64,000 bases of DNA from an uncultured Acidobacteriota bacterium (GCA_963708395.1 CAVPSG010000001.1:62406-126405); one strand, 5' to 3'; positions 20,571 to 59,797 are shown, numbered from the stretch's first letter. Notes: generated by a model not told the origin, from the letters alone. Translations and numbers: made by a program.

Positions 20571-20603
20571 CTTCAAGCGGAATTCACGTCGCCTTCAGGG
20601 CGG
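20571..20603 (+). promoter_or_regulatory. Pho-box-like array upstream of ppx-phoU
   Basis: Three 11-bp units CTTCAAGCGGA / ATTCACGTCGC / CTTCAGGGCGG; CAGAAT -10 at 20620. Confidence 0.7.
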
Positions 20604-20634: not shown

Positions 20635-22238
20635 ATGAGGCAGCTCGCCGCCATCGACATCGGAACCAACAGCATCAAGCTGCTGATCGCCTCCGTCGAA
20701 GAGGACGGATCGCTGCAGGTGATGTCGCGCGAGAAGTCCCTGGTGCGCCTGGGCAGCGAGACCCTCGCCACGGGCCGCCTGTCGGACGAGGCCATCGAGG
20801 CGGGGGTCGGAGGCCGTCGAGCAGTTCCTCCGTTCGATCCAGGCGGCCGGGGCGGATCTCGTCCGGGCCGTGGCGACCTGCGCCGTGCGGGAGGCCTCCA
20901 ACTCGGCGGCCTTCCTCGAGGCCGTCCGCCGGCGGACGGGCGTCACGGTCGACGTCGTCTCGGGCGAAGAGGAGGCGCGGCTCATCAACCTCGGCGTGCG
21001 CAGCGAGTTCCCGGCGCGTTTCGACCCGCTCTTCCTCATCGACATCGGCGGCGGCTCGACGGAATTCGTCATCTCGGAGGGCTCCCGGGTCCAAATGACG
21101 GAGAGCCTGCCGCTCGGCGTGGTCCGGCTGGCCGACCGGTACCTTCGCGACGATCCGCCGAGCGAGCGCGACCGCAAGGCGATCAAAAAGGCGATCCGCG
21201 CCGTCGCCAAGCGCGCGACCGACGCCGTCCGCAAGACCGGCTTCAAGACGTGCGTCGGCTCTTCGGGCACGATCCAGTCGCTCTCCCTGGTCCACGAGGC
21301 GGCGGTCCTGGGACGCGAGGCGACGCCCACGGGCCACCGGACGCTGACGCGCGATGGGCTGAGGAAGGTCAACCGCCTGCTGCGACGGACGACGGCGCGC
21401 GAGAAGCTGCGCATCCCCGGCCTCGATCCACGCCGCCGCGACATCGCCGTGCCGGGAGGGACGCTCCTGGCCTGGATCCTGAAGCGGAGCGGCGCCAAGG
21501 CGATCGTCGTCGGGCGAGCGGGGCCTGCGGGAGGGCATCCTCCTCGACCACGTCGCGCGGCAGGGACAGAAACGGGTCCTCGACCGGGACGTCCGGGCCC
21601 GCTCGATCGACCGGCTGCTCCGGCGCGGCAACGCCGAGGTGCTGCATGCGGCCCACGTGGCGCGGCTCGCGCTCGAGATCTTCGACCACGCCCACCCGCT
21701 CCATCAGCTGTCGGCGACCGAGCGGGAGTGGCTGCAGTACGGGGCGCTGCTGCACGACATCGGCTGCCACATCGGATACGCGAAGCACCAGCGGCACTCC
21801 TACTACCTCATCACGCACGGGGACCTGACGGGGTTCTCGTCGGACGAGGTCGAGGTCCTCGCCTCGATCGCGCGGTACCACAAGGGCGGCGGCCCGAAGG
21901 GACGCCACGAGAACTGGCGGCGCCTCGACCCGTACCTGCGGCCGGTGGTCGAGAAGCTGGCGGCGATCGTGCGCATCGCCGACGGCCTCGACCGCAGCCA
22001 CCGGCAACTCGTGACCGGCGTCGAGTGCCGACATCCGGCTCGCGGCGCGTCGAGGTGACCGCCGTCGGCCCGCGGCGACTGCGAGGCGGAGCTCGTCGGC
22101 CGCGCGCGACAAGGCGGATCTCTTCGAACGAGTCTTCGACCGGAAGATCGTCGTTCCGCGCCGATCCCGGCGGAGCGCGAGGAGAAGGTTCATCAGAAAG
22201 ACCTGGAAATCCTCTCGGCCGAGGCGCTCTGGGGCTAG
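20635..22238 (+). CDS. ppx: Exopolyphosphatase Ppx/GppA with HD domain (indels)
   Basis: AAIDIGTNSIKL, ATCAVREASN, SGEEEARL, IDIGGGSTEF, ALLHDIG, RIADGLDRSH. Confidence 0.92.
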
Positions 22239-22268
22239 GCGTCAGAACGTCATGAGCGGGGGAGCATC

Positions 22269-22937
22269 GTGAAAGAGCATTTTTCGGAGCAGCTCGAGGA
22301 TTTGCGGCGCAACCTGATTCTTCTCGGCGGCGAAGTCGAGCGCCAGATCCAGCACGCCATCGAGGCGCTGATCGAGGCCGACGAGAAAAAGGCGGAGGAA
22401 GTGATCGCCTCCGACGAGGAGATCGACCGGATGGAGATGATGGTGGAGGAGCAGGCGGTGCAGCTCCTCGCCCTCCAGCAGCCGGTCGCCGTGGACCTCC
22501 GATTCCTCGTCGCGGCGCTGAAGATCAACAACGACCTCGAGCGCATCGGCGATCACGCCGTCAACATCGCCGAGGGCGCGCAACGCCTCTCCGGCCAGCG
22601 GCCGTTCAAGCCCTTCATCGACATCCCGTACATGGCGGACGTGGCCATGTCGATGCTCAAGCAGTCGCTCGACGCCTTCGTCAACCGCGACGCCGAGCTC
22701 GCCAAGAAGGTCATCAAGAAGGACGACATCCTCGACGAGAAGAACGTCTCCATCATCCGCGAGCTCCTGACCTACATGGCGGAGCACCCGTCGCTCATCA
22801 CCTACTGCCTCGAGCTCATCTCGATCTCCAAGAATCTCGAGCGGGTGGGCGACCTCGCGACGAACATCTGCGAGGACACGATCTTCATCGCCGAAGCGCG
22901 GTGGGTGAAACACCACGCGACCGAGCTGACGCCCTAG
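22269..22937 (+). CDS. phoU: Phosphate signalling protein PhoU
   Basis: QQPVAVDLR..NDLERIGDHAVNIAE..NLERVGDLATNICE. Confidence 0.97.
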   Translation: MKEHFSEQLEDLRRNLILLGGEVERQIQHAIEALIEADEKKAEEVIASDEEIDRMEMMVEEQAVQLLALQQPVAVDLRFLVAALKINNDLERIGDHAVNIAEGAQRLSGQRPFKPFIDIPYMADVAMSMLKQSLDAFVNRDAELAKKVIKKDDILDEKNVSIIRELLTYMAEHPSLITYCLELISISKNLERVGDLATNICEDTIFIAEARWVKHHATELTP

Positions 22938-22966: not shown

Positions 22967-24253
22967 GTGACGTTTCTCTGGGGCGTCGCGACTTCCGCGT
23001 ATCAGATCGAGGGCGCTCCCGAGAACGACTGGACCGCCTGGGAGGCGGACGGCCGCCTGAAGCCGGGCGCCGCTCGGTGCGGCGAGGGGTCAGGCCACCG
23101 GAGGCGCTGGGAAGCCGACCTGGGCCTTCTTCCGTCGCTCGGGGCAAACGCCTATCGCTACTCCGTCGAGTGGAGCCGGATCGAGCCGCGTCCGGGCGAG
23201 TTCGACGCGCGCGCGCTCGAGGTCGAGCGGCGCCGCGTCCGGGTCCTCGAGCGTCTCGGCGTCGAGCCCGTCGTCACGCTTTCGCACTACACGCATCCGC
23301 TCTGGTTCTGGCGCGAAGGGGGATGGGAGAGCCGCGAGAGCGTCGGACGGTTCGCCCGCTTCGCGGCCCGCGTGGCGGAGGCGCTTTCGCCGCACGTGCG
23401 GATCTGGGTGACCCTGAACGAGCCGGTCGTGCTGCTCCTCGGCGGCTACCTGGCCGGCCTCATTCCGCCGGGACACCGCAGCTTCGCGCGGTCGGCGAAG
23501 GCGCTCGAGCACATGCTGACGGCGCACGTGGAGGCCGTGGCGGCGATCCGCGCCCGGGACGCCGGCGCCCGGGCCCTCATCGCGCACAACATGCTCGATT
23601 TTGCGCCGGACCGACCGGGCCATGCGGTGGACCGCCGCCTCACGTCGGAGGGCCGCGCGCTCTACAACACGATGCTCCTCGAAGCCCTCGCCACGGGGCG
23701 CGTGCGCTGGTCGTTCCCGGGAGAGGGCCGCGCCGTCTTCCGCGTCGATGGCCTGCCGGAGGCGAACGATTTTGTGGGCGTGAACTATTACAGCCGCGTG
23801 CACCTGCGTTTCCGCGGGCTGCCCGGCCGCGTCGGCGAGTTCTTCTACCGTGACCGGCGGGGGCGCGGGCTCACCCAGATGGGCTGGGAGATTCATCCCG
23901 AAGGCTTCGAGAGCGTCCTCTCGGCGGCTGCCGAGACCGGCCGCCCGATTCTCGTGACGGAGAACGGCGTCGCGACGGGCGACGACCGCGTCCGCCAAGA
24001 TTTCCTGCGCGAGCACGTCTTCGTCCTCGCTCACGCGCGCCGCAAGGGGCTCGACGTCCGCGGGTACTTCCACTGGTCCCTGCTCGACAACTTCGAGTGG
24101 CTCGAAGGCCTGCACCCCCGGTTCGGGCTCTTCGAAGTGGACTACGCGACGTTCCGCCGCCGGCGGCGCCCGTCGGCGGATCTCTTTGCGGCGCTCGGGC
24201 GCGAGCTCATTCCGGGAGCGGCCGGCGAATCATCCGCCGCTTCTCGAACGTGA
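22967..24253 (+). CDS. Glycoside hydrolase family 1
   Basis: FLWGVATSAYQIEG, YRYSVEWSRIEP, TLNEP acid/base, VTENG nucleophile, WSLLDNFEW. Confidence 0.93.
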   Translation: MTFLWGVATSAYQIEGAPENDWTAWEADGRLKPGAARCGEGSGHRRRWEADLGLLPSLGANAYRYSVEWSRIEPRPGEFDARALEVERRRVRVLERLGVEPVVTLSHYTHPLWFWREGGWESRESVGRFARFAARVAEALSPHVRIWVTLNEPVVLLLGGYLAGLIPPGHRSFARSAKALEHMLTAHVEAVAAIRARDAGARALIAHNMLDFAPDRPGHAVDRRLTSEGRALYNTMLLEALATGRVRWSFPGEGRAVFRVDGLPEANDFVGVNYYSRVHLRFRGLPGRVGEFFYRDRRGRGLTQMGWEIHPEGFESVLSAAAETGRPILVTENGVATGDDRVRQDFLREHVFVLAHARRKGLDVRGYFHWSLLDNFEWLEGLHPRFGLFEVDYATFRRRRRPSADLFAALGRELIPGAAGESSAASRT

Positions 24254-25028
24254 CGTAGGTCGCGACGCCGCATTCGCGCGCGAGCGCGAGCGTGCGCTCG
24301 TAGCCCCAGCCGACTTCGGCCGGCGCATGCGCGTCCGAGGAGAAAGTCACGGGCACGCCCGCCGCGACGAGGCGTTGCAGGAGTCGCGGCTCCGGATAGG
24401 CCTCGCCGACGGGCTTGCGCAGTCCCGCGGACGAGATCTCGACGGCGCATCCGGCCTCGCGGACGGCGGCGATCGCTTCGTCCTCGGCCTCCTCGAGCGC
24501 CCGCGCCGGGCGGTGGCCGTGCTTCTTCGGGAGGTCGAAGTGCGTCAGGACGTCGAAGAGACGCGTGCGCGCGGCCTTCGCGAGCAGGCGGTAGTACTCC
24601 GCGTACAGCCGCTCCGCGCCCTCGGAGGCGAAGCGGTGCGAAGCGGACTCGGGCGCATCGATCCAGTCGCCCGCGACCCAGTGGACCGAGCCGAGGACGA
24701 GATCCCAGTCGGCGCGCGCGAGCCATCCCGCGAGCGCTTCCTCGTGTCCCTCGGCGTAGTCGGCCTCGAGGCCGAGGCGGACCGGGATTCGCCCGGCAAA
24801 CTCGGCGCCGAGCGCACGGACCTCCGCGACGTAGCCGTCGAACTGATCCTCCCGCATCGCGAGCTTCGGATCGCGCGCGCCGGCCGGGAGGAAATAGAGC
24901 GGGACGTGGTCCGTGAACCCGATCTCGCCCAGCCCGCGCGCGATCGCCTTGAGGACGAAATCGCGCGAGGCGCCTCCGGCATGTCCGCACCGGAACGTGT
25001 GGACGTGGTAGTCGGGGAGGCCCTTCAC
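24207..25028 (-). CDS. Histidinol-phosphatase HisJ-type PHP protein
   Basis: DYHVHTFRCGHA, GFTDH, GLEADY, GSVH, THFDLPKK, SSDAH. Confidence 0.88.
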   Translation of the reverse strand: MKGLPDYHVHTFRCGHAGGASRDFVLKAIARGLGEIGFTDHVPLYFLPAGARDPKLAMREDQFDGYVAEVRALGAEFAGRIPVRLGLEADYAEGHEEALAGWLARADWDLVLGSVHWVAGDWIDAPESASHRFASEGAERLYAEYYRLLAKAARTRLFDVLTHFDLPKKHGHRPARALEEAEDEAIAAVREAGCAVEISSAGLRKPVGEAYPEPRLLQRLVAAGVPVTFSSDAHAPAEVGWGYERTLALARECGVATYVTFEKRRMIRRPLPE

Positions 25029-25043
25029 CGCTTGGAAGGCTGT

Positions 25044-25997
25044 TCAGCCGCGCTCGGCCAGGACCTGGCGCGCGAACGTCTTCGGATCGGCCTCGAAGAG
25101 GTTCGATCCGCGGTCGATCAGCTCGGCCGACCGCCCGGCGGCGAGGCCGCCGATCGTCGCGAGCAAGTGGGGCGCCGCGGGAATCGCGCCCTCGTCGCGG
25201 CGGCGTTCGATCTCGCGCGCCAGCACCGAGAGGTCGGTGACGTTCCCGAGATCGCGCGTGAGACTCCCGAGCGCCTTCTCCCGCGCCTGCAGCTCCCGCG
25301 TTCCCGCCGAAGCCACGAGCTCGACGGCGTACCGGAGCTCCTTCAGCCTCTTGCGCCACTCGTGGAAGTCCTCGACGGCGCGGCTTTCCTTCGCCTGCGT
25401 GAGAGCCCGGCGCTCTCGGCGCCGGAGCCGCATCAGGCCGCGCTCGAGGTCGTGGGCGGAAAACGCGGGCTCGAGGCAGGTGTCGAGAACCGCCGGCAGC
25501 GACGCCACTGACGCGAGGCCGCGCCGGAGCGCCTCCGAAGCGTCGCGGCGCGAGCGGCGCTGGTCGAGCTCGAACGACACCGCGATCGCGTGCCGGGCCA
25601 GATCGTCCTCCGGAACCGGGGGCAGCGCGGTGAGCGTGCTTTGCAGCACGTCGGCGTCGCGGAACGGCCCCGTGACCTCGAACGCCTCGCGAAGCTTGCG
25701 ACGCAGGCCCCGTTCGGCATGGCGGCCCAGCGCGGGGGAAAGCAGAGCGATCACCGCCCGGGCGCGGCGGAGCGACTTGCGGTACTCGTGAACGGCCTCG
25801 ACGGAGTCCTCGGCGGTGCGGCGGGCGACGCGCCGCGTCACCCCGAGCACGCGTGCGAATGCCGTCACGATCCCTTCCCGCAGGGGGCGCCGGCGCGGGA
25901 GCCGGAGCTTGCTCGCGGGCTTCCGACGCGCGGGCTTCGGATCGGCATCCCTGTCGGAGTGCGCCGGGTGGGCTCGGGGGACCTGCTCGCTCGCCAT
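25044..25997 (-). CDS. CHAD-domain (polyphosphate-binding) protein
   Basis: EAVHEYRKSLRRARA, RDADV, FHEWRKRLKELRYAVE, LGNVTDL. Confidence 0.9.
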   Translation of the reverse strand: MASEQVPRAHPAHSDRDADPKPARRKPASKLRLPRRRPLREGIVTAFARVLGVTRRVARRTAEDSVEAVHEYRKSLRRARAVIALLSPALGRHAERGLRRKLREAFEVTGPFRDADVLQSTLTALPPVPEDDLARHAIAVSFELDQRRSRRDASEALRRGLASVASLPAVLDTCLEPAFSAHDLERGLMRLRRRERRALTQAKESRAVEDFHEWRKRLKELRYAVELVASAGTRELQAREKALGSLTRDLGNVTDLSVLAREIERRRDEGAIPAAPHLLATIGGLAAGRSAELIDRGSNLFEADPKTFARQVLAERG

Positions 25998-26031: not shown

Positions 26032-26053
26032 TTTCACCCGGCCTTCGATCCCC
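26032..26053 (+). promoter_or_regulatory. Pho-box-like pair upstream of the ABA-domain gene and sthA
   Basis: TTTCACCCGGC / CTTCGATCCCC with 11-bp period. Confidence 0.45.
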
Positions 26054-26101
26054 CCGAAACGCCGGCGTGGTTCGATTCGTTTCGATGCACAGGAGGCTGC
26101 G

Positions 26102-26428
26102 ATGCCCGCTTCCGCCGGTCCTGGACTCGATCTCGAGATTGCTTCGGGAGTTCTCGGGGACCGCACCCCGCGCGTCCCGGCGTACTCGACGGAAAACGCG
26201 GCGGCCGATCTTCTTCTGTGGCGTCTGGCGCAGGCGGGCGTCGCCTTCCGCGTCCAATGGCTCGACGGGAACCACTTCTGTGTTCTCTGGAAGGAGTCGC
26301 AGCGCGGCGCCGCAACGGGCAGCGCGGCCAGCCGGCCGCTCGCGATCTGCCGTGCGGCGCTTGAGCTCTTCCGCGGTTCCGCCGCGCCCGCGTCCGAAGA
26401 CTTTCCACTCGAAGCGCAGCGGTTCTGA
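26102..26428 (+). CDS. Small protein resembling the phage ABA-sandwich domain
   Basis: AGGAGG RBS; AGPGLDLEIA..PAYST..AAA..PLAICRAAL. Confidence 0.6.
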   Translation: MPASAGPGLDLEIASGVLGDRTPRVPAYSTENAAADLLLWRLAQAGVAFRVQWLDGNHFCVLWKESQRGAATGSAASRPLAICRAALELFRGSAAPASEDFPLEAQRF

Positions 26429-27878: not shown

Positions 27879-27911
27879 CTTCACCCGGATCTCACGCGAT
27901 CTTTCCGCGGC
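27879..27911 (+). promoter_or_regulatory. Pho-box-like array upstream of the PHP-GT21 operon
   Basis: CTTCACCCGGA / TCTCACGCGAT / CTTTCCGCGGC with 11-bp period. Confidence 0.65.
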
Positions 27912-27964
27912 CCTTTCGCGGACCTCGGCAAGTCTTCTCGCCCGGCGAGGACAATCCGAATCGG

Positions 27965-28684
27965 GTGGCGAGCATGTTGCTTTGCGATTTTCACGTCCAC
28001 ACGACGTACTCGGACGGGGTGCTCCCCTTGCCGGAGGTCGTCGACCTGTTCGGGCGCTCGGGCCACGACGTCATCGCAATCACGGACCACATCGTCAACC
28101 GGGACAACGGGCTCGGCCGCATCGCGCACGCCATGCGGCGGTCGCTCGATCCCGAGAGCTGGAAAAGGTACCGCGACGAGATCGCCCGCGAGGCCGATCG
28201 GGCGTGGAGGAGCTACGGGATGCTGGTCCTCCCCGGGGCGGAGCTGACCCGGAACACGATCAATCGCGACACGTCCGTCCATGTCCTCGCGCTCGGGCTC
28301 GGCGAGTACATGCCCGCCGACGGCGATCCGATCGAGATGCTCAAGGAAGTCCGGGCGCGCGGCGCCGTGTCGGTCGCGTGCCACCCGCACGAGATGAGCG
28401 AGTTCTACGCGAACACCTGGTACCTCTGGAATCGACGGCGGATCGTCGACAAGCTCGTGGACCTCTGGGAGGTCGGCTGCCGCTGGGACCTCTTTCCGGT
28501 GGTCTCGCGCGAGAAGCTTCCGCATCTCGCCAACAGCGACTTCCACCGGCCCGAGCATCTCTACGCCTGGAAGACGCTGCTCCGGGCGGAGAAGACGGTC
28601 GCGGGCGTCCTCTTCGCGCTGCGGCGCGCGACGGGGATCGGCGTGATGCGCCTGACGCCCGACGCCGTGGCGGCCTCGGCATGA
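27965..28684 (+). CDS. PHP-domain metallophosphoesterase
   Basis: CDFHVHTTYSDG, AITDH, GAELT, HVLA, CHPH, NSDFH. Confidence 0.88.
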   Translation: MASMLLCDFHVHTTYSDGVLPLPEVVDLFGRSGHDVIAITDHIVNRDNGLGRIAHAMRRSLDPESWKRYRDEIAREADRAWRSYGMLVLPGAELTRNTINRDTSVHVLALGLGEYMPADGDPIEMLKEVRARGAVSVACHPHEMSEFYANTWYLWNRRRIVDKLVDLWEVGCRWDLFPVVSREKLPHLANSDFHRPEHLYAWKTLLRAEKTVAGVLFALRRATGIGVMRLTPDAVAASA

Positions 28685-29877
28685 TGCCGGCCGCCTTCTT
28701 CCTCGCCGCGCTCGGGCTCTCGGTGCTTCTGCACGCCGTGGCGGTCGCCGCGCTCTTCCGGCATCGCCGCCGCGCACGCCGGCTCGCGTCTCCCCATCCC
28801 GCGCCGATGGTGTCGATCGTCAAGCCGCTCTGCGGGCTCGATGCGGAGCTCGAGGAGAACCTCGCATCGTTCCTCCGCCTCGACTATCCGTCCTTCGAGA
28901 TCGTCTTCTCTTTCGCCTCGGCCGAGGACCCGGCGTTCTCAACCGCACGGCGCATCGCCGATCGATTTCCGCTCGTTCCCACGGTGTTCGTCGTGGACGG
29001 ACGGGAGCCGGGGCGCAACGCCAAGGTCAATCGCCTCGACGCGGCGCTGCGGCGCGCCCGGGGAACACTCTTTCTCTTCTCCGACGGCGACGTGCGCGTC
29101 CGGCCGGATTTCCTTCGCCACGTCGTGCCGGAGATGGCGGATCCGTCGGTCGGGCTCGTGTCGTGCCTCTTCCGGTCGGTCCGCGCGGCGTCGCTCGCCT
29201 CTCGGCTCGAGTCGCTCTATCTCGACGGCGTGCTGCGGCCCGCGACCGCGGCCGTCGCCGGCGTCCTGCGGATGCCCTGCGTCGTCGGCAAGTCGATCCT
29301 GATCTCGCGCCCCGCGCTGATCGCGATCGGCGGCATGCGGCCGCTGCGCGACCACCTGGCCGAGGACTTTCTTCTCGGAAAGCTGACCGAGAAGGCGGGA
29401 TACCGCGCCGTCCTCTCGTCCGAGGAGATCCGGACCGTCGCCGGCGCGCGCACGCTCTCCGCGGTTTGGCAGCGGCACCGCCGCTGGTCCATCCTGAGGC
29501 AGCGCCTCGGCGGACTGTCCTACGTCTCGGAGCTCTTCTCGAGCCCGTTGCCCTTCGTCATCGGAGCCGCCGCGACGAGCGGCGGCGATCCGCGAATCCT
29601 CGCGGCGGTGCTCGGTCTCGGGCTCGCGCGCCTCGGAACGGAGGCGCTGGCGCTCGCGGACGGTCCGGAGCGAATCGGTCTCGCGCAGCTTCTCGTCCTC
29701 CTGCCGCTGCGCGACCTCGGCGCCGCGGCGCTCTTCTGGGCGGGACTCTTCGGCCGCCGCACGCGCTGGCGCGGACGGCGGCTCTGGGTGGGGAAGGAGA
29801 CCCTTCTGCGGGACGAGAAAGAAGGGAAGGGGACGGGACGCCGGGCGGCCGCCCTCGCGCCGATCGCGGCGCGCTAG
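28681..29877 (+). CDS. GT21/GT2 glycosyltransferase (ceramide glucosyltransferase / HpnI-like)
   Basis: N-terminal TM; KPLCGLD, NAKVNRL, SDGDV, LAEDF, RHRRW; C-terminal TMs; WRGRR; ATGA overlap with the PHP gene. Confidence 0.88.
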   Translation: MMPAAFFLAALGLSVLLHAVAVAALFRHRRRARRLASPHPAPMVSIVKPLCGLDAELEENLASFLRLDYPSFEIVFSFASAEDPAFSTARRIADRFPLVPTVFVVDGREPGRNAKVNRLDAALRRARGTLFLFSDGDVRVRPDFLRHVVPEMADPSVGLVSCLFRSVRAASLASRLESLYLDGVLRPATAAVAGVLRMPCVVGKSILISRPALIAIGGMRPLRDHLAEDFLLGKLTEKAGYRAVLSSEEIRTVAGARTLSAVWQRHRRWSILRQRLGGLSYVSELFSSPLPFVIGAAATSGGDPRILAAVLGLGLARLGTEALALADGPERIGLAQLLVLLPLRDLGAAALFWAGLFGRRTRWRGRRLWVGKETLLRDEKEGKGTGRRAAALAPIAAR

Positions 29878-32018
29878 ATCTTCTCGCCCGCCTCGCCGAC
29901 CGCCCGGAGCCCCCGGCGCGCCTGGCGGTCGATCAGCGCCTGCTGAGAGTCGTACGGCGCGTCTCCCGGGGCGGGCTTGCGGCGGACGTAGACGCCGTCG
30001 GGTCCGAGATCCCGCGCACGCGAGTTGTCGCGCTTCAGAGGCTCGAGGATTTCCTGCCGGACCTTCTCCTTCGCTTTCTCATCCAGGATCGGCACCATCA
30101 GCTCGACGCGGCGGAAGAAGTTGCGCGGCATCCAGTCGGCGCTCGCAATGTAGATCTCTTCCTCGCCGCCCACGCCGAAAGAGAACGTGCGGCTGTGCTC
30201 GAGGAAACGCCCGACGACGCTCGATACGGAGATCGTCTCGGAGACGCCCGGCACGCCGGGCCGCAGGCAGCAGATGCCGCGAATGGCGAGGGTAATGGGC
30301 ACGCCCGCGGCGGAGGCCCGGTACAGCGCCCGGATCGCCCGGGGATCCACGAGGGCGTTCATCTTGGCGACGATCGAGGCCGGCTTGCCCTCGCGGGCCT
30401 TCTGCGCCTCGCGGTCGATGAGGGAAACGACCTTCTCGTGGAGCGAGACCGGCGCCACGGTGAGCCGCTTGTAGCGCGTCCGCTTGGAAAAGCCGGTCAG
30501 GAAGTTGAAGAGCTGGGATGCGTCCTCGCCGAAATCCGCGCGCGCCGTGAAGAGCCCGAGATCCGTGTAGATGCGGCCCGTCAGGCGGTTGTAGTTTCCC
30601 GTGCCGATGTGCACGTAGCGCCGCATCGCGCTGCCTTCGCGGCGGACTACGAGCGTGATCTTGGCATGCGTCTTCAGTCCCTCGACGCCGTAGGCCACGT
30701 GGGCGCCGGCGCGCTCGAGCGACTGAGCCCACTGGATGTTCTTCTCCTCATCGAACCGCGCCTGGAGCTCGACGAGCACGGCGACCTGCTTCCCGTTCTC
30801 GGCCGCGCGGGCGAGCGCCGCGACGATCGGCGAGTCCGATCCCGTCCGATAGAGCGTCATCTTGATCGCGAGGACGTCCGGGTCGGTAGCGGCATCGTCC
30901 AGGAATCGGACGACGGGGTCGAACGAGTCGTACGGGAGGTGCAGCAGGATGTCGCGCTGGCGGATCTTCTCGAAGCAGTCGCCGGGCTGCGCGAAGAGCG
31001 AGCCGGCGGCCGGAAGGTACGGCGTGTCCTTCAGATCCGGACGGTCGAGGCGCTGCACCGCGAGGCAGTCCGAGACGGCGAGCGGTCCCGCGCTCTCGTA
31101 GACGTCCTCCGCGTCGAGCTCGAGCTGTGCGCGCAGCAGTTCGCGAACGCTCTCGGGGCAGCGGGCGTCGACCTCGAGCCGGATGGCCGCGCCGAATCGC
31201 CGCTGGCGGACGTTCTCGGCGACGGAGCGCAGGAGGTCGCCCGCCTCCTCCTCGCGAATGTCGATGTCGGCGTCGCGCGTGACGCGGAAGGAGGAGGCGC
31301 CCCGGATCTTCATCCCGGGGAAGAGCTGCGGCAGGTGCGCTTCGACGAGATCCTCCAGGAGCATGAACTCGGCGGAACGCGGCGAGTTGCCGGCCAGGGG
31401 CACGAAGCGCGGGAGCGACGGCGGCACCTTGACGCGCGCGAAGAAGCCGCGGCCATCTTCCTTCTCGGCGAGCTCGACGGCGAGCGAGAGCGAGAGGTTC
31501 GAGACGAAGGGAAACGGATGCGCCGGATCGAACGCGAGCGGCGTCAGGATCGGGAACACGACGCTCTCGAAGTACGCCGTCAGCTCCTTGCGGCGCTCGG
31601 CGTCCACGTCGGTCCAGCGCAGGATCCGGATGCCGGCCTCCGCCAGGTGCGGCAGCAGCTCGCCGTTCAGCAGCGCGTCCGCGGCGGCGAGATCGCGTCG
31701 CACCACTTCTCCGATCGCGCGCAGCTGTTCGTGGGGTGAGAGGCCGTCGGCGCTCCGCTCCGTCACCGCGGCCTCGAGCTGCTCGTGCAGGCCCGAAACC
31801 CGGATCATGAAGAACTCGTCGAGGTTGGAGTGGAAGATCGAGAGGAACTTCAGCCGCTCGAGAAGAGGCCAGGCGGAATCCTGCGCTTCTTCGAGGACGC
31901 GATGATTGAAGGCGAGCCAGGAGATCTCACGGTTGAAATAGAGAGATCGGTCCTGGAAAGTATCGTCCGGGACGAGGGACGAAGATTCTCCTGCGAGCTT
32001 TTCAGTCGCTTCGGTCAT
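29874..32018 (-). CDS. ppk1: Polyphosphate kinase 1
   Basis: NREISWLAFNHRVL, SNLDEFFMIRV, HPFPF, LKTHAK, GTGNYN, RFLEHSR, SADWMPRN. Confidence 0.97.
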   Translation of the reverse strand: MTEATEKLAGESSSLVPDDTFQDRSLYFNREISWLAFNHRVLEEAQDSAWPLLERLKFLSIFHSNLDEFFMIRVSGLHEQLEAAVTERSADGLSPHEQLRAIGEVVRRDLAAADALLNGELLPHLAEAGIRILRWTDVDAERRKELTAYFESVVFPILTPLAFDPAHPFPFVSNLSLSLAVELAEKEDGRGFFARVKVPPSLPRFVPLAGNSPRSAEFMLLEDLVEAHLPQLFPGMKIRGASSFRVTRDADIDIREEEAGDLLRSVAENVRQRRFGAAIRLEVDARCPESVRELLRAQLELDAEDVYESAGPLAVSDCLAVQRLDRPDLKDTPYLPAAGSLFAQPGDCFEKIRQRDILLHLPYDSFDPVVRFLDDAATDPDVLAIKMTLYRTGSDSPIVAALARAAENGKQVAVLVELQARFDEEKNIQWAQSLERAGAHVAYGVEGLKTHAKITLVVRREGSAMRRYVHIGTGNYNRLTGRIYTDLGLFTARADFGEDASQLFNFLTGFSKRTRYKRLTVAPVSLHEKVVSLIDREAQKAREGKPASIVAKMNALVDPRAIRALYRASAAGVPITLAIRGICCLRPGVPGVSETISVSSVVGRFLEHSRTFSFGVGGEEEIYIASADWMPRNFFRRVELMVPILDEKAKEKVRQEILEPLKRDNSRARDLGPDGVYVRRKPAPGDAPYDSQQALIDRQARRGLRAVGEAGEKI

Positions 32019-32052: not shown

Positions 32053-32074
32053 TCAGTGTTAAAAGGACGGTAAG
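32053..32074 (-). promoter_or_regulatory. Pho-box-like pair upstream of ppk1
   Basis: Minus strand CTTACCGTCCT / TTTAACACTGA. Confidence 0.55.
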
Positions 32075-32648: not shown

Positions 32649-34130
32649 ATGAAGAAGCTGGTGATCCTGGCCCTCTGTCTGGGGATGCTGTCCGTTCGCG
32701 GGTTGGCTCAGGACGCAACGGACAGCGCCAACAAGGAACCCGACGCCACCAAGAACGAACCGGATGCGACCAAGAAAGAGTTGTCCGCCAAACAGCTCGA
32801 GGAAATGAAGAAGGCCCTGGAGGAGCAGCAGAAGCAGATCGAGAGGCTCAAGCAGGAGGCGGCCGAGCGCGACCGCGCTCTCGGAGAGATGCAGAAGCAG
32901 GTCCAGGACGAGATCGACCGGCAGGCGGCGGCCAAGACGGCGGAGAAGCCCGGCTTCGTTCAGGCGTCGCTGACTCCGTCGCCGACCCTGAATCAAACCA
33001 CGGTCACGGTGAATCCCGCCACGGCCATGCCCTCGCAGCCCTGGGCGGTTCTGAAAGTCAGCGACACGATCAACTTCCGGTTCGGTGCGGTCGTTCAGGG
33101 GACCTACGAGGCAACCCAGGACCCCGTCAGCGAAGGCTACTCGCAGAATTTCTATCTGCGGCGGGCCCGATTCAGCATTCTGGGAACGATGCCCGCGGGC
33201 GTTTCCGTCTTTTTCCAGACCGACGATCCGCGCGTCGGCAACGCGGGGACCAATGGCGTGAAGGCCATCAACACGGGATTCCAGATTCAGGATTTCTACG
33301 TGCAGTGGGCCTTCGCCGGCAAGGCCGCGGCGCTCCAGGCGGGGTTGTTCCTCGTGCCGACGCTGCGGCAGACGCTCACGAGCGTTTCGACGTTCCTGTC
33401 GCTCGATCTTCCGACCTGGGGTCAGCAGGAGGGAACGATCGAGGAGCAGACCGGCGGGCGCGACTACGGCGTGGGCATGAACGGCGCGCTCTTCGACAGT
33501 CATCTGTCGTACCGCGTCGGGGCCTTCTCGGGCTTTCGCGCGCCGAGCGGCCCGAGCCTGACGCCACCGCTCGGAGTGGAAGCGGGATCGCGCAACCCGC
33601 TGCGCTTCGCCGGACGCATCATGTGGGACTTCTTCGACAGCGAGTACGGCTACTCCTACGCGGGAACCTATCTCGGCAAGCAGAAGGTCCTCGCCATCGC
33701 GGGATTCGGGGACGGGCAGGGCGACTACCAGTCCTACGGCGGCGACGCCTTCTTCAACTGGCCCCTCGACTTCGGAAGCGTCACGGCGGAAGCGGACTAC
33801 CGGAAGATCCACAGAAATTTCTTCATCTACAACGTCAACGGCACGCCGACGACGCTGCCCGGGCAGTACACGGTCTTCGGGAACGTCGGCGTCTACTTCG
33901 CCGACGCCAAGCTTCAGCCTTTCTTCCGTTACGAGGTGCTGAGGTTCTCCGACGCGATCAACGAGGTCAAGAACCAGACGCGCTTCGGCGGCGGGTTGAA
34001 CTTCTACATCCTGGGGCAGAACGCCAAGATCACGCCCTACTTCGAAAGGGTCCAGCCGAACGTCCAGCCGCTGACGGCCCAGCTGAAGGACTTCAACCGC
34101 TTCGTCTGCCAGTTCCAGGGCTCCTTCTAA
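32649..34130 (+). CDS. Outer-membrane porin, OprO/OprP-like, with N-terminal coiled coil
   Basis: Signal peptide; coiled coil; FYLRRARF, GRDYG, FFRYE; terminal Phe; Pho context. Confidence 0.75.
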   Translation: MKKLVILALCLGMLSVRGLAQDATDSANKEPDATKNEPDATKKELSAKQLEEMKKALEEQQKQIERLKQEAAERDRALGEMQKQVQDEIDRQAAAKTAEKPGFVQASLTPSPTLNQTTVTVNPATAMPSQPWAVLKVSDTINFRFGAVVQGTYEATQDPVSEGYSQNFYLRRARFSILGTMPAGVSVFFQTDDPRVGNAGTNGVKAINTGFQIQDFYVQWAFAGKAAALQAGLFLVPTLRQTLTSVSTFLSLDLPTWGQQEGTIEEQTGGRDYGVGMNGALFDSHLSYRVGAFSGFRAPSGPSLTPPLGVEAGSRNPLRFAGRIMWDFFDSEYGYSYAGTYLGKQKVLAIAGFGDGQGDYQSYGGDAFFNWPLDFGSVTAEADYRKIHRNFFIYNVNGTPTTLPGQYTVFGNVGVYFADAKLQPFFRYEVLRFSDAINEVKNQTRFGGGLNFYILGQNAKITPYFERVQPNVQPLTAQLKDFNRFVCQFQGSF

Positions 34131-34870: not shown

Positions 34871-36034
34871 ATGGCTCTGGGGCGGAAAAAGGCATTGGCG
34901 CTTCTGGGCGCCGTGGCCGCGGTCGTTCTGATCGCGAGCCGATTCCTGCGGGGCGCTCCGGCCCGCGGCGTCGTGGCCGGCGGCGATTCGACTCTCCGCC
35001 CGGTGGCGGTCGCGGTGGCGAAGCGCGCCCCGCTCGCGAACACGCTCAGCCTGTCGGGTGAGTTCAAGCCCTTTCAGGACGTGGACCTCCACGCGAAGGT
35101 CGCCGGCTACATCCGGCGCATCTCCGTGGACGTCGGCGACCGGGTGCAGGCCGGGCAGGTTCTCGCGGTGCTCGAAGTGCCCGAGCTCGAGGCGGAAGCT
35201 CAGGGGGCCGCCGCGTCGCTCGAGCGGGCGAAATCGGCGTACGCCGCCGCGCACTTCGCCTACCTGAGACTCAAGCAGGCCTCCGACGCGCGTCCCGGCC
35301 TCATCGCGCCGCAGGAGCTCGACGACGCCCTCGCGCGCGACAAGGAGGCCGAGGCGCAGGTCGGCATCTCCGAGGCAACCCAGAAGCAGCAGGCCGCGCT
35401 CTCCGACTACACCCGCATCACGGCTCCCTTCACCGGCGTCGTCACGCGGCGCTATGCAGATACGGGAGCGCTCATCCAGGCGGGAACGTCCTCGAACACG
35501 CAGGCGATGCCGGTCGTTCGGCTCGCGGAGGACGACCGGCTCCGGCTGGTCCTGCCCGTGCCGGAATCGGCCGTTCCGCAGATCCATCTCGGGACCGAGG
35601 TCGAGGTCCGCGTCCAGGCGCTCGACCGGACCTTCCAGGGCCGCGTCGCCCGATTCAGCAGCGACCTCGATCGGCAGACCCGGACGATGGAAACCGAGAT
35701 CGACGTGGCGAACCCGGACGGCCGGCTCGTGGCCGGCATGTACGCCGAGACCGTTCTGGACCTCGGCCGGAAGGCGTCCGCCCTCACCATTCCCGTCGAG
35801 GCCGTGTCCCGCAAGGGATCGGAGAGCACCGTGCTCGTCGTTGGATCGAACGACCGCCTCGAAGAGCGGCGTGTCGGGCTCGGCATGGAGGGCACGAGCC
35901 GCGTCGAGGCGCTGACGGGAATCCGGGAGGGCGACCGCGTCGTGATCGGAAACCGCAGCGATTTCCGCGTCGGCGAGCAGGTCCAGCCGCGCCTGGTCGA
36001 GACGGCTCCGAGCGACGGGGGAGGGAATCCCTGA
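34871..36034 (+). CDS. RND efflux membrane-fusion protein
   Basis: GAGGAG RBS; LHAKVAGYI..VDVGDRV..ITAPFTGVVTRR..TRTMETEIDVANPDGRLVAGMY. Confidence 0.92.
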   Translation: MALGRKKALALLGAVAAVVLIASRFLRGAPARGVVAGGDSTLRPVAVAVAKRAPLANTLSLSGEFKPFQDVDLHAKVAGYIRRISVDVGDRVQAGQVLAVLEVPELEAEAQGAAASLERAKSAYAAAHFAYLRLKQASDARPGLIAPQELDDALARDKEAEAQVGISEATQKQQAALSDYTRITAPFTGVVTRRYADTGALIQAGTSSNTQAMPVVRLAEDDRLRLVLPVPESAVPQIHLGTEVEVRVQALDRTFQGRVARFSSDLDRQTRTMETEIDVANPDGRLVAGMYAETVLDLGRKASALTIPVEAVSRKGSESTVLVVGSNDRLEERRVGLGMEGTSRVEALTGIREGDRVVIGNRSDFRVGEQVQPRLVETAPSDGGGNP

Positions 36035-39000
36035 TGTCTCGCTTCGCAATCCGGAATCCCTACTTCATCGTCGTCGTCTGCCTGATCGTGGCCATCGTCG
36101 GCACCACGACGCTCGTGAGAATGCCGGTGGATCTCTTTCCCGCGATCAACATCCCGGTGGTCGTGGTCGCGACCTTCTATTCCGGAATGCCGCCGGAGCA
36201 GATCGAAACCGACATCACGGGCCGGTTCGAGAGGTTCTTCACTCTCGGAAGCGACATCGATCACATCGAGTCGCGGTCGCTGCCGGGCGTCAGCCTCATC
36301 AAGATCTACTTTCACGCCGGGGCGGATCCCAACGCCGCCCTGAGTCAGATCTCGAATCTCGCATTGGCCAACCTGCGCAAGCTGCCGCCCGGAACGCTAC
36401 CGCCCGTGGTTCTGAAGTTCGACGCCTCGAGCCTGCCGGTCTGCCTCATCACGCTCAAGGGGCAGGGCCTCGGAGAGACGGAGCTGCGCGACCTCGGGCA
36501 GTACGCCGTCCGCAATCAGGTGGCCAATGTCGCGGGCGCTTCCGTGCCCCAGCCCTTCGGCGGGAAGTACCGGCAAATCATGGTCTACGTGGATCCTCTG
36601 AAGCTCGATGCCCATCAGCTCTCGGTGATGGACGTGGTTCGCACGGTCAACGACAGCAACTTGATTCTCCCCGCGGGCGACGTCCGCATCGGACCGACGG
36701 ACTACAACCTGTACACGAACAGTCAACTGCCCACGACCGCCGAGATCAACCGGCTTCCCCTCAAGACCGTCAACGGTGCCTCGGTCCTGGTTCGGGACGT
36801 CGGGCAAGCCTCCGATGCGCACCAGATCCAGACGAACATCGTCCGAGTCGACGGCCAGCGCTCCGTCTATCTGCCGATCCTCAAGCAGGGGGGCGACACG
36901 AACACCATCGCCGTCGTCGACGGGATCCGGAAAGCCGTTTCGGGCCTGACGGACATTCCTCACCAGCTCGTCGCGAACGTGGTCTTCGACCAGTCGGTGT
37001 TCGTTCGCAAGGCAATCGAGAACCTTCTCCACGAGGGAGGGATCGGACTGCTCCTGACGGGAATCATGATTCTTCTCTTCCTCGGCAGCATGCGGGCGAC
37101 CGCGGCCGTGTTCCTCTCGATCCCGCTTTCGGCCCTGGCGGCGTTTCTGGCGATCAGCGCGGGAGGGGGCACCGTCAATACGATGGTGCTCGGCGGGTTG
37201 GCCCTCGCCTTTTCACGGCTGATCGACAACTCGGTCGTCGTGCTCGAGAACATCTTCCGGCACATGGAGATGGGAGAGGTCGCCGAGGAGGCCGCCGAGA
37301 AGGGGGGGCGCGAAGTGGCCCTTCCGGTTCTCGCGGCGACGCTGACGACCGTCGTCGTCTTTTTCCCCGTGGTGTTCCTCTACGGCGTCAGTCGCTTCCT
37401 TTTCCTGGCGCTCGCGCTCGCCGTGGTCCTGTCGCTGCTCGCGTCGTTCTTCGTGGCGATGACGGTCGTGCCGCTCTTCTGCGCCAAGTGGATGCGTCGG
37501 GCGCACCTCGAAGAAGACCACGTCGTGACGAAGTCCTGGGGCGGGAAGATCATCGCCCGCTTCAATCACCGGTTCGAACAGATGCTCAACCGGTACGACG
37601 CCGTTCTTGCGGGCGCCGTCGCGCGTCCGGGAGCGACGGTGGTCGGCGTGATCGCCATCTGCCTTCTGAGCTTTTCGCTGTACCCGTTGCTCGGCGTCTC
37701 GTTCTTTCCCCGCACCGATCCGGGCCAGTTCGTGATCAATCTGAAGGCGCCGTCCGGCACACGTCTGGACCTGACGGAGCAGATGATCCAGAGGGTCGAA
37801 GACGAGATCCGGAAGACGGTTCCACCGGGTGATCTCGGGATGATCGTCTCGAACATCGGAACGACTCCGGGATTTTCCTCGATCTACACGCCCAACTCCG
37901 CACCGCACACGGCATTCGTCCAGGTCAGCCTGAAGGAATCGCATCGGCTGGGCAGTTACGAGTACATGACGCTCGTGCGGCAGCGACTCCGCGAACAGCT
38001 TCCCGAATTGAGCGCCTACTTTCAGTCGGGCGGGCTCGTCGATGCGGTTCTCAACCTTGGGCTGCCGGCCCCGATCGACGTGCAGGTCAGCGGGATGAAT
38101 CTGGAGAGGACGTACGGCACCGCGACGGAGATCGCGGGCGAGATTCGGAAGCTTCGCGGGGTGAGCGACATGCTCGTTCCCCAGGACCTCAACTATCCCT
38201 CCCTGCGCCTCGATATCGATCGGACCAAGGCCAGTCTGGTCGGCCTCTCGCAGCGAGAGGTGGTCGACAACGTCATCACGGCCCTGACCTCGAATCAGAT
38301 GATCGCCCCGAGCTACTGGGTGGATCCGAAGACCGGCAACGACTACATGCTGACGGTCCAATACCCCGAGGACGGGATCCGCACTCTGTCGGATCTCCGC
38401 CAGATACCCCTGCGGGCCGCCGGCGGCTCGAATTCGACGCCGCTCGACGCCGTCGTGAAGATCCGGCCGATCGAAGCGCCGACCGAGGTGGACCACTATC
38501 AGCTGCGACGCGTCATCGACGTCTATGTGGCGCCGTCCGGCGAGGACCTCGGCCGCCTGAGCGCCGGCATCGACCGAATCGTCGCCCGCACGAAGCTGCC
38601 CGAAGGCGTCCGTGTGAATCTGCGGGGATCCGTACAGGGCATGCGATCTTCCTTCCGCAGTTTCGGGCTCGGTCTCCTGCTCTCGATCGTGCTCGTCTAC
38701 CTGATCCTCGTCGCGCAGTTCTCGTCGTTCCTCGACCCGTTCATCATCCTGCTGGCGATCCCGCCCGGCCTCGTGGGAGTCCTCCTCGTCCTGCTCGCCG
38801 CCGGTAGCACGCTGAATGTCATGTCCCTGATGGGGTTGATCATGATGGTCGGCATCGTAGTCTCCAACAGCATCCTGATCGTCGATTTCACCCGCATCCT
38901 TCGCCGCGAAGGTGTTCCCCTGGGCCAGGCGGTCGGGCAGGCCTGCCGGATCCGGCTGCGTCCCATCCTGATGACGTCTCTCGCGACCATCATCGGATTG

Positions 39001-39171
39001 ATTCCGATGGCGATGAAGCTCGGAACGGGGGCGGAGGCCTACGCGCCGCTGGCTCAGGCGATCATCGGAGGACTCCTCGTCTCCGTCGTCGCGACGGTGT
39101 TTCTCGTTCCGGCGGCCTATGTGCTCCTGCACCGCAAGGAGGAGCTCGTCACCGCGGAGGAGGTCCGATGA
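36034..39171 (+). CDS. RND efflux permease (AcrB/AcrD/AcrF family)
   Basis: 1045 aa; MPVDLFP, LIDNSVVVLENIFRH, GIVVSNSILIVD, RLRPILMTSLATIIGLIPMA. Confidence 0.95.
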   Translation: MSRFAIRNPYFIVVVCLIVAIVGTTTLVRMPVDLFPAINIPVVVVATFYSGMPPEQIETDITGRFERFFTLGSDIDHIESRSLPGVSLIKIYFHAGADPNAALSQISNLALANLRKLPPGTLPPVVLKFDASSLPVCLITLKGQGLGETELRDLGQYAVRNQVANVAGASVPQPFGGKYRQIMVYVDPLKLDAHQLSVMDVVRTVNDSNLILPAGDVRIGPTDYNLYTNSQLPTTAEINRLPLKTVNGASVLVRDVGQASDAHQIQTNIVRVDGQRSVYLPILKQGGDTNTIAVVDGIRKAVSGLTDIPHQLVANVVFDQSVFVRKAIENLLHEGGIGLLLTGIMILLFLGSMRATAAVFLSIPLSALAAFLAISAGGGTVNTMVLGGLALAFSRLIDNSVVVLENIFRHMEMGEVAEEAAEKGGREVALPVLAATLTTVVVFFPVVFLYGVSRFLFLALALAVVLSLLASFFVAMTVVPLFCAKWMRRAHLEEDHVVTKSWGGKIIARFNHRFEQMLNRYDAVLAGAVARPGATVVGVIAICLLSFSLYPLLGVSFFPRTDPGQFVINLKAPSGTRLDLTEQMIQRVEDEIRKTVPPGDLGMIVSNIGTTPGFSSIYTPNSAPHTAFVQVSLKESHRLGSYEYMTLVRQRLREQLPELSAYFQSGGLVDAVLNLGLPAPIDVQVSGMNLERTYGTATEIAGEIRKLRGVSDMLVPQDLNYPSLRLDIDRTKASLVGLSQREVVDNVITALTSNQMIAPSYWVDPKTGNDYMLTVQYPEDGIRTLSDLRQIPLRAAGGSNSTPLDAVVKIRPIEAPTEVDHYQLRRVIDVYVAPSGEDLGRLSAGIDRIVARTKLPEGVRVNLRGSVQGMRSSFRSFGLGLLLSIVLVYLILVAQFSSFLDPFIILLAIPPGLVGVLLVLLAAGSTLNVMSLMGLIMMVGIVVSNSILIVDFTRILRREGVPLGQAVGQACRIRLRPILMTSLATIIGLIPMAMKLGTGAEAYAPLAQAIIGGLLVSVVATVFLVPAAYVLLHRKEELVTAEEVR

Positions 39172-40468
39172 GGAGATGCCTTTCTCTGCTGGTCGCCGTC
39201 GCTCTCGGCTCGGCTTCGTCGGTGCGCGCGCAGGAGCCGCCGCCGGCCGCTCCGATCCGGCTCGCGGTCGCCGATGCCGAAGCGCTGGCCCTGAAAAACA
39301 ACCCCCAGATCACGGTCACCCGGCTGAACGCGCTGGCCTCGCAGCAGGTCTCGCAGGAGGTCCGGTCCGCGCGGTATCCCACGCTCACCGCCTACGTGAC
39401 CGGCGTCGTCGCCGAACAGGAGAGCCGGATCACCGCCGGGGCGATCAACAACCCCATCCTCTACGACCGCCTGGCGGGAGGCGCGGCCATCGGCCAGCTC
39501 ATCACGGATTTCGGCCGAACGGGCAACCTCGTCGAAAGCTCGAATCTCCGGGCGCAGGCCGAGGAGCAGAGAGCCGTCGCCACCGCCGCGCAGATCACTC
39601 TCGCCGTCGATCAGGCCTTCTATCGGGCCCTCGAGACGCGGGCCCTGCAGGAAGTCGCGCAACAGACCCTCGAGGCACGGCAGGCCGTGGCCGATCAGGT
39701 TCGGGCCCTGACCGAGAACAAGCTCAAGAGCGATCTCGACCTGAGCTTCGCCGAGGTCAACCTCGCCGAGGCGAAGCTGCTGCGGATCGATGCGGAGAAC
39801 AGCCAGAAGTCCGCGCTCGCCGTTCTCTCGGCGGTGCTCGGGTACTCGAGCGACCAGGCTTTCGAGCTGATCGACGAGGCTACGCCGATCGAGGCGCCGT
39901 CCCGGATCTGGATCGCTTGACCGCGCTCGCCATCTCGCGCAGGCCGGAGCTGGCGGCGCTGCAGCTCGAATCCCGCGCCCTCGAGAGGCTCCACGTCGCG
40001 GAGGAAGACCTCTCCCGGCCGAGCGTGAGGACCCTGGGCGTGATCGGCGGCGCGCCAATCCGAAACGAACACCTTTCGTCCTGGTACGGGGCGATCGGAT
40101 TCAACGTGGAGATCCCGGTCTTCAACGGGTATCTCTTCACGGCCCGCGCGAAGGAGGCGGATCTCCGCGCGCAGGCGGCCCGCGAGCAGCTGCGGGATCT
40201 CCAGAACACGGTGGCCCGGGACGTGCGCACGAGCTGGCTCGCCGCGAGCACTGCCTATGGCCGTCTTGCCGTCACGCGCCAGCTGCTCGACCAGGCCGGT
40301 CAGGCGCTCGATCTCGCGCGTACGCGATACACGCTGGGGTTGGGCTCGATCGTCGAGCTGACGCAGGCGCAGCTCCAGGCGACCCGGGCGCAGATCGGGG
40401 ATACCGACTCCCGATACCAGTACCGGCTTTCCCAGGCGGTCCTGAGGTTCGAGGTCGGCGGCTTCTAA
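39168..40468 (+). CDS. TolC-family outer-membrane efflux protein (indel near 39900)
   Basis: ALALKNNP, QLITDFGRT, RRPEL, RYTLGLGSIVELTQAQ in two frames. Confidence 0.9.
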
Positions 40469-42749: not shown

Positions 42750-42782
42750 ATTAACGGGAGCTTCACCCCGAGTTAACGGCCA
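42750..42782 (+). promoter_or_regulatory. Pho box array upstream of pstS
   Basis: ATTAACGGGAG / CTTCACCCCGA / GTTAACGGCCA with exact 11-bp period. Confidence 0.8.
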
Positions 42783-42813
42783 AACTTCATCGTCCCCCCG
42801 CGAAGGAGAAGGT

Positions 42814-43837: not shown

Positions 43838-43861
43838 TTCGGTGCGTTCGGAGGTTCGACG

Positions 43862-46547: not shown

Positions 46548-46617
46548 CGGCAACATGAAAACTTCGACGAGCCGCGGAAAACCGCCGGCGCCGGCCGCGG
46601 GACGGGAAGCCGGCGCG

Positions 46618-47309: not shown

Positions 47310-47372
47310 GGGACGACCTCTCTCCGGGCTTCGTCCTCAACGGCCGACATCCTCCGAACGCGGCGTTTTTGC

Positions 47373-57189: not shown

Positions 57190-57197
57190 GGGGCTCG

Positions 57198-57910: not shown

Positions 57911-57914
<4 letters not shown>
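57198..57914 (+). CDS. Hypothetical protein with low-complexity Arg/Pro/Gly tail (indels; end approximate)
   Basis: Coding-like segments MPQTRMFRDRVV.., HVLDHERDLFVMVLE..WTRMVLFDAERLP.., VTFRHLEEGW between two ACAD genes. Confidence 0.55.
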
Positions 57915-59061
<1,147 letters not shown>

Positions 59062-59065
<4 letters not shown>

Positions 59066-59756: not shown

Positions 59757-59797
59757 TGCGGGAATTTTACCGGCTCCCGATCGTTTCCTCGCCTTCG

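Follow-up and report, generated by a model that had tools for sequence, protein, structure and literature searches.

The closest described relatives of the locus analysed here are lipid-remodelling systems in which a phosphoesterase is paired with a lipid glycosyltransferase (GT) under predicted Pho control. This two-gene logic is that of PlcP-Agt remodelling in SAR11, Roseobacter, Agrobacterium and methanotrophs; PlcP has a calcineurin-like fold. The closest known system is Pgt, a processive glycosyltransferase described as a member of family GT21 (PMC8231724) with a predicted Pho box and a preference for diacylglycerol (DAG) over ceramide (PMC3972451). A gene pair encoding a PHP metallophosphoesterase and a GT21 glycosyltransferase was analysed in a stretch of 64,000 nucleotides (GCA_963708395.1 CAVPSG010000001.1:62406-126405, hereafter the window) from an uncultured Acidobacteriota bacterium, for which an initial annotation had proposed a lipid-remodelling operon behind Pho-like repeats. 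The initial annotation mentioned neither the third gene described below, a glycoside hydrolase of family 1 (GH1), nor the Pho-boxed GT21 Pgt of Agrobacterium and Mesorhizobium.

The PHP open reading frame (ORF; 27974-28684, plus strand) encodes 236 amino acids that match PF02811 (E = 9e-6) and the Protein Data Bank (PDB) entry 2ANU, TM0559 of Thermotoga maritima (E = 1e-49). An AlphaFold2 model (pLDDT 87) was superposed by Foldseek on 2ANU with a template modelling score of 0.86 and a structural alignment identity of 38%. All nine metal ligands are present (H7, H9, D14, H39, E90, H103, H137, D189 and H191), the first seven being invariant in 22 of 22 sequences and D189 and H191 retained in at least 90%; nine such ligands are described as binding three metals in PHP proteins (PMC3666897). 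With these ligands and a seven-stranded barrel the protein falls in the same PHP subfamily as TM0559. A cytoplasmic location, as initially proposed, is a reasonable prediction because a hydrophobic segment is absent and the first barrel strand begins right at the N-terminus. The GT21 ORF (28681-29877, plus strand, 398 amino acids) overlaps the PHP stop with its start by 4 bp (ATGA), in agreement with the coupled pair of the initial annotation. It matches PF13506 (E = 6e-40, 136.9 bits against a cut-off of 21.7) and has human UGCG as its best solved relative (E = 3e-32), to which the motifs D83, D135-G-D137, E228-D229 and R265-H-R-R-W269 align. An N-terminal hydrophobic helix (residues 1-28) and weaker hydrophobic helices at the C-terminus were found, so that membrane anchor, profile score and D, D, D, (Q/R)xxRW motifs all place the protein in GT21, as first described.

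Upstream of the PHP gene a predicted Pho box spans 27879-27911 (plus strand) and comprises CTTCACCCGGA (12.9 bits, 27879), TCTCACGCGAT (0.8 bits, 27890) and CTTTCCGCGGC (4.7 bits, 27901). On these scores only the first unit is good in the window; the three 11-bp Pho-like units proposed at the outset are correctly placed from 27879, but consist of one strong and two degenerate units. The best fit to the CTGTCAT-type Pho consensus of Escherichia coli had 6 mismatches of 14, and a lineage-trained matrix was therefore used. This two-unit matrix, trained on 22 regions upstream of pstS, porin, phoA and phoX genes with PHP promoters left out, picked exactly position 27879 with 13.6 bits, the eighth-highest score among the 2489 upstream regions of the genome; ranks 1 and 5 were training sites and rank 7 was ppk. 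Of 2000 dinucleotide shuffles one attained this score, and 18 of the 2489 upstream regions scored at least 10 bits. Upstream of pstS in the Thermoanaerobaculia lineage, TT(C/A/T)AC recurs every 11 bp as a direct repeat, and the window units are the same repeat. We take this repeat to resemble the PhoP boxes of Bacillus and Streptomyces.

PHP upstream regions of 79 Thermoanaerobaculia loci scored at least 7 bits in 50 cases and at least 10 bits in 37. Controls reached 7 bits in 4 of 71 regions for GH1, 1 of 80 for GT21 and 0 of 7 for sthA, and in 40 of 43 for ppx, which lay outside the training set. None of the 16 PHP upstream regions scored in Vicinamibacterales, where PHP is the second gene; the GT2 gene that lies ahead of PHP reached 7 bits at 16 of 39 loci, all sources pooled. 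Metagenomic upstream regions attained this threshold in 14 of 24 cases for PHP and 3 of 10 for GH1. The GT2, metagenomic PHP and metagenomic GH1 counts leave out L281, L269 and L245-GH1, whose offsets were faulty. Within the 64-kb window nine sites of at least 10 bits were found, seven of them before ppx, PHP, porin, pstS or ppk. In 28 close relatives the distance between the best site and a hexamer resembling GA(C/G/T)AAT is 71-72 bp; the window counterpart, GACAAT (27950-27955, plus strand), lies 71 bp past unit 1 and is a putative -10 element. A scan for the sigma-70 consensus and for terminators yielded no full promoter and no terminator. In G068, a genome of the same genus, the regulator beside pstB had PhoB as its top match (207 bits, below the cut-off of 296). 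The PHP-GT21 operon is predicted to be under Pho control.

Among 151 genomes of the class, 45 gave PHP matches, 38 of them strong, and GT21 lay directly downstream in all 38 of the latter. The tallies of the pair, shc, serine palmitoyltransferase (SPT), HpnI, PlcP/LpxH and wider-phylum PHP include one unpublished genome (G004), one of the 38 carriers, on which no conclusion hinges. Together with the pair, a GH1 gene was present at 41 of the 47 loci resembling the host family, at 16 of 17 further loci and in 18 of the 20 regions fetched; the conserved unit is thus a trio of PHP, GT21 and GH1 that recurs in Pho islands. In the window the GH1 gene (22967-24253, plus strand) is displaced 3.7 kb upstream, behind a Pho-boxed ppx-phoU. 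Its best PDB match, and by that criterion its closest structural relative, was 1VFF (E = 2e-80; next match 6e-67), which we take to be BGPh of Pyrococcus horikoshii. BGPh is described as membrane-associated and as preferring long-alkyl beta-glucosides (PMC4687101). Outside the host family, 14 of the 20 fetched regions contained a Pho gene, varying by lineage among pst, phoA, phoX, porin O/P, pit, ppk and ppx. At 57 distant metagenomic loci (GC content about 0.30-0.71), GT21 was present in 27, GH1 in 21 and a small GT2 in 17, with pstS, phoA and OlsB-like genes as neighbours, the last flanking four loci. In the wider phylum PHP was patchy (21 of 401), and neither GT was found in 3 of 12 such loci. 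Searches of plasmids with PHP returned two distant haloarchaeal matches only, and a search of the ESM Atlas returned PHP clusters only.

Other lineages pair the same PHP family with other enzymes. A 245-aa GT2 accompanied PHP in 16 of 16 Vicinamibacterales loci and a DAG-kinase-family gene was present in nine. Long PHP homologs gave 955 matches; of the 120 listed, 112 carry a monogalactosyldiacylglycerol (MGDG) synthase domain (UgtP/MGDG-type GT28) ahead of PHP, and all nine ligands are retained in 117. In one long homolog the N-terminal region matched the UgtP-type diglucosyl-DAG synthase below cut-off, and also PDB entries 9WDE and 4WYI. By these sequence assignments the PHP partner changes family (GT21, GT2 or GT28) yet is always a glycosyltransferase in these groups, and pairing with unrelated GT families, two of which are known DAG glycosylators, points to the supply of DAG.

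Several details of these loci may be recorded separately. The GT2-PHP operon of Vicinamibacterales type (L095-L110, L210-L221) occurred once with GDPD, PhoX and pst. The GT28-PHP fusions of about 660 amino acids form a large family (P0275-P0390), mostly from Verrucomicrobiota where the organism was named, and in P0134 and P0143 the GT domain is degenerate and lacks the GFGDGH motif. Cluster P0272 (946 amino acids, seven members, two contigs) joins PHP to an alkaline phosphatase, either as a real fusion or by read-through. Apparent single-chain PHP-GT21 fusions (P0273, P0274, P0276, P0144 and L093) were not counted, the three that were checked having lost or lacked a ligand and having the look of frameshift read-through.

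Searching plasmids with GT21 identified alphaproteobacterial genes annotated as 'ceramide glucosyltransferase' that overlap an upstream gene labelled 'UDP-2,3-diacylglucosamine diphosphatase', the overlapping pairs occurring in Fuscovulum, Pannonibacter and Gemmobacter. The upstream protein matches S. meliloti (3e-39) and P. aeruginosa (1e-32) proteins and appears to be PlcP-like, an identification made with locus tags unmatched. The plcP-GT operons of types 3 and 5 described by Sebastian et al. (PMC4796936) have the same arrangement. A GT2 that lies beside alphaproteobacterial plcP-GT21 was considered as an ortholog of the Vicinamibacterales GT2 and rejected, as the match covered the first 89 residues only. 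An LpxH profile used as a proxy for PlcP gave one weak match in each of 142 of the 151 class genomes and was uninformative; the PlcP-like protein was therefore used as query. With this query no PlcP ortholog was detected in the 151 genomes: 19 had matches at E ≤ 1e-10 (best 5.6e-15), and these fell at the same places as a single LpxH-like gene. The host genome (G000) had no PlcP-like match at 1e-5. The window PHP is not a PlcP homolog, showing no similarity to the S. meliloti PlcP-like protein (E = 2.2). The proposal that PHP takes the place of PlcP gains support from the missing ortholog, from the plcP-like and GT21 pairs of Alphaproteobacteria and from fusions of PHP to DAG glycosyltransferases. 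PlcP has also been reported missing from verrucomicrobial methanotrophs (PMC9239053).

The top NCBIfam match of the window GT21 was TIGR03472 (HpnI; E = 1e-72, 244.8 bits, under the cut-off of 310). HpnI proteins formed a branch with 100/98 support, and the window GT21 lay outside it; grouping with HpnI, named beforehand as a result that would speak against the proposal, was not observed. Four of 88 sequences had been removed from the first tree owing to a stop in the extracted frame; the tree with the 100/98 branch comprised 28 of the remaining 84 under a careful search, and a quick search gave the same split. The Pgt-like set formed a separate branch; its members were picked on annotation, position and homology rather than by comparison to the characterised Pgt, which lay outside the tree. 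Most GT21s of the trio carry the D-x-N and E-D motifs of the Pgt-like set, and 13 of 13 Thermoanaerobaculia HpnI proteins carry D-x-D and D-D. By its placement and score, the window protein falls in a third group of GT21, distinct from both HpnI and the Pgt-like set. Monophyly of the trio GT21s is not claimed given weak support (68/78). Among other GT21 loci, L151-L164 (families f8, f11 and f15) have Pho-boxed GT21s that occur without PHP, often beside an 'MGYGH' protein (DUF6938 in part), and one adjoins an Agt-like GT4. The HpnI proteins of family f1 split into two distinct sub-branches.

The locus thus has a phosphoesterase gene coupled, behind a Pho box, to the gene of a putative synthase of non-phosphorus lipids, the synthase role being assigned by family, and comparative evidence supports both the lipid-remodelling context and the predicted Pho regulation of the initial annotation. 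Building on the directly observed gene anatomy, intact motifs, conservation of trio and upstream repeat, and family fusions, we favour Pho-regulated phospholipid-to-glycolipid remodelling in which PHP would free DAG by head-group cleavage, a reading that we consider evenly balanced between right and wrong. That the module serves Pho-linked glycolipid remodelling is very probable; that PHP is the diesterase, once such a module is granted, is slightly favoured. The neighbouring PhoB-like regulator is predicted to bind the TT(C/A/T)AC repeats at 27879. In the second and weakest step of the scheme, the cytoplasmic three-metal PHP would fill the role that PlcP has in Proteobacteria, working at the inner membrane face as a diesterase of the phospholipase C type. 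As expected of its family, GT21 would use a UDP-sugar to attach glucose or galactose to DAG and yield beta-glycosyl-DAG, as Pgt does, with ceramide perhaps also an acceptor in genomes that encode SPT, the host included. The BGPh-like GH1 may remove or trim the sugar, allowing the lipid to be recycled. A wider proposal, somewhat less likely than not, is that TM0559-family proteins are phospholipases C built on the PHP barrel, a fold with which this activity is not known to be associated. They would drive remodelling in PlcP-less lineages (Acidobacteriota, Verrucomicrobiota and others) in combination with lipid GTs of at least three unrelated families (GT21, GT2 and GT28), as gene pairs or as fusions, and a dedicated GH1 would make the swap reversible.

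The readings that differ in the acceptor can be weighed against the distribution of lipid genes. An HpnI paralog glycosylating hopanoids would fit the top NCBIfam match, the slightly higher identity to HpnI proteins (30%) than to Pgt-like proteins and the presence of shc in G000 (frameshifted, C2:286306-287972). We give this reading almost no credence, since the window GT21 scores under the cut-off and lies outside the HpnI branch, a separate HpnI in the same genome (C2:1814397-1815515) scores 394, over the cut-off, 21 of the 38 pair-bearing genomes lack an shc match and none of the HpnI upstream regions scored (12 of 16) has a box. Among the genes called in the window there is no hpn or shc gene, as had been stated; shc, HpnI and an SPT-like operon lie elsewhere in the genome. 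A glycosphingolipid pathway, with GT21 as glucosylceramide synthase, GH1 as glucosylceramidase and PHP stripping the sphingolipid phospho-head group, is improbable, even though UGCG is the best PDB match and an SPT-like gene (S. multivorum SPT, E = 1e-131; NF047600, 563 bits against a cut-off of 640) is present in G000, as in all 36 other sampled genomes of the host order and 78 of the 151 class genomes. It lies between an NAD-dependent reductase-like and a weakly GNAT-like gene (C2:2812554-2815988; L165:6555-9989), a row that is likely a ceramide synthesis operon, but is unlinked to the trio. SPT was present in 29 of the 38 pair-bearing genomes and not found in nine, all of family f5 and 94-99% complete; in f5 it was found in 0 of 35 genomes, the best scores of five checked with the SPT profile being 321-332 bits and the three scanned proving to be Kbl over cut-off. 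Ceramide is therefore not a universal acceptor, and the same PHP family is fused to DAG glycosyltransferases. Of the three acceptors first suggested, DAG, the sole one available to all carriers, is likely the common acceptor, whereas hopanoid is unlikely and ceramide, untenable as the universal acceptor, is possible in the host genome.

The role of PHP admits a further contender, namely the same Pho-regulated module with a phosphomonoesterase that yields DAG from phosphatidic acid, ceramide from ceramide-1-phosphate, or phosphate from released head groups such as glycerol phosphate. Solved PHP relatives include histidinol phosphatase and nucleoside bisphosphate phosphatase, a fusion of phosphatidic acid phosphatase to DAG glucosyltransferase would be equally logical, and P0272, possibly a read-through, joins PHP to alkaline phosphatase; the phosphatases that release inorganic phosphate from phosphoalcohols are called unidentified in a review (PMC3972451). 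This contender is nonetheless unlikely, if the most serious one, because a PAP2 phosphatase already stands beside the trio in 7 of 17 loci, no PlcP ortholog that could carry out the diesterase step turned up in the class genomes, and the PHP-GT21 gene order mirrors plcP-GT21. A Pho-regulated function apart from membrane lipid, such as PHP scavenging phosphate from nucleotides or polyphosphate while the GT makes a surface glycan, would suit the host-family gene neighbourhood, which includes ppk, ppx and CHAD genes, and the resemblance of the Vicinamibacterales GT2 to the TIGR04283 arsenosugar GT (86.5 bits against a cut-off of 182). The PHP fusion with DAG glycosyltransferase, the BGPh-type GH1 and the DAG-kinase-family, PAP2, GDPD and OlsB-like neighbours speak against it, and we find it quite improbable.

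Several points weigh against phospholipid-to-glycolipid remodelling by PHP and GT21 as we favour it. Units 2 and 3 of the box are weak in the window, 29 of the 79 relatives score below 7 bits, and the loci are related, so that the counts show conservation and are not independent trials. A Pho gene lies within 6 kb in only 4 of 14 long loci outside the host family. PHP occurs without a GT neighbour in G189 and G277; conversely, GT21s of f11 and f8 that occur without PHP are Pho-boxed in 10 of 10 scored of 14, and G103 has GH1-GT21 and no PHP, so the GT does not depend on PHP. The window GT21 falls outside the Pgt-like branch (100/100), shares 26% identity with Pgt-like proteins and has D-G-D rather than D-x-N. 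The basic helix 45-57 of PHP has a hydrophobic moment of 0.64, barely above the 0.46-0.57 of other surface helices, and membrane binding is therefore unsupported. Searching by fold returned nucleases, nucleotide phosphatases and histidinol phosphatase, with no lipid-acting match, and the literature searched contained neither an activity of a TM0559-family member nor a phospholipase of the PHP type. Judged by sequence, PHP may cleave either diesters or monoesters; a PHP-family phosphodiesterase, Sb-PDE, is on record (PMC5460133).

The host, a soil bacterium, belongs to the class Thermoanaerobaculia (Acidobacteriota), its closest relatives being labelled Thermoanaerobaculia or Acidobacteriota. 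The assembly of 4.5 Mb in three contigs (69% GC) is rich in frameshifts, and the many split genes of the window (20635-22255, 44366-48800 and 56017-63200, affecting ppx, pst, phoBR-like and other genes) fit its low completeness figure of 58.7%; they are probably sequencing errors, and the pst and phoBR-like genes are intact in G068. The gene order is sthA, a gap of 120 bp, PHP, GT21 and convergent ppk, within a phosphate island of ppx, phoU, ppk, porin, pstS and frameshifted pstCAB and phoBR-like genes. On the plus strand, a predicted Pho box of 22.2 bits (20571-20603) precedes the ppx-phoU-GH1 transcript, with a frameshift-broken ppx followed by phoU (22269-22937; together 20635-22937). On the minus strand, ppk (29874-32018), with a predicted Pho box at 32053-32074, overlaps the GT21 stop with its own. 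The porin gene (32649-34130, plus strand) has a predicted Pho box at 32552, its promoter being part of the training set, and pstS (42750-43865, plus strand), with three well-formed 11-bp units upstream that served as a training site, is followed by the frameshifted pstCAB and phoB/phoR-like genes. At 26032-26425 a 10-bit Pho-like site precedes a 108-aa ORF that lies shortly before sthA; the corresponding site in G068 scores 15 bits, and sthA may be co-regulated in the host genus. A second, unrelated PHP gene (HisJ-type histidinol phosphatase) and a CHAD-domain gene lie inside the island at 24207-25997 (minus strand), the HisJ-type gene keeping near the trio in several families. An RND efflux cassette (34871-40468) is inserted between porin and pstS and is lacking at that position in G068.

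Surveys of remodelling count plcP; if PHP does the job of PlcP, remodelling is undercounted in abundant soil and sediment phyla. Were the proposal true, it would assign a function to 2ANU, a structural-genomics orphan dating from a 2005 release, and a lipid substrate to the PHP fold, and the third GT21 group would cease to be taken for a marker of hopanoids or ceramide. The papers that name TM0559 assign it no function, and a search over titles and the beginnings of abstracts, with most subscription journals and supplements outside its coverage, found no description of the operon or of a TM0559-family function.

In comparison with the known systems, HpnI and eukaryotic UGCG have the GT21 fold and the D, D, D, RxxRW motifs in common with the window GT21, which differs in lying below the HpnI cut-off and off the HpnI branch and in being independent of shc, with ceramide unavailable in some carriers. 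Neither PlcP nor Agt, a GT4 that makes alpha-linked lipids, is homologous to the window pair. The Pgt of Agrobacterium tumefaciens and Mesorhizobium loti and the plcP-GT operons are alike with the window in GT21, predicted Pho box and an overlapping upstream phosphoesterase gene; the window differs in that the upstream enzyme is a PHP barrel, the GT is on a separate branch, GH1 is attached and the lineage is non-proteobacterial. By analogy, the window module would work like plcP-pgt, while its proteins fall outside the PlcP and HpnI families and outside the Pgt-like branch. Because a Pho-boxed GT21, Pgt, is already known, the GT half is of a known kind and PHP is the new part.

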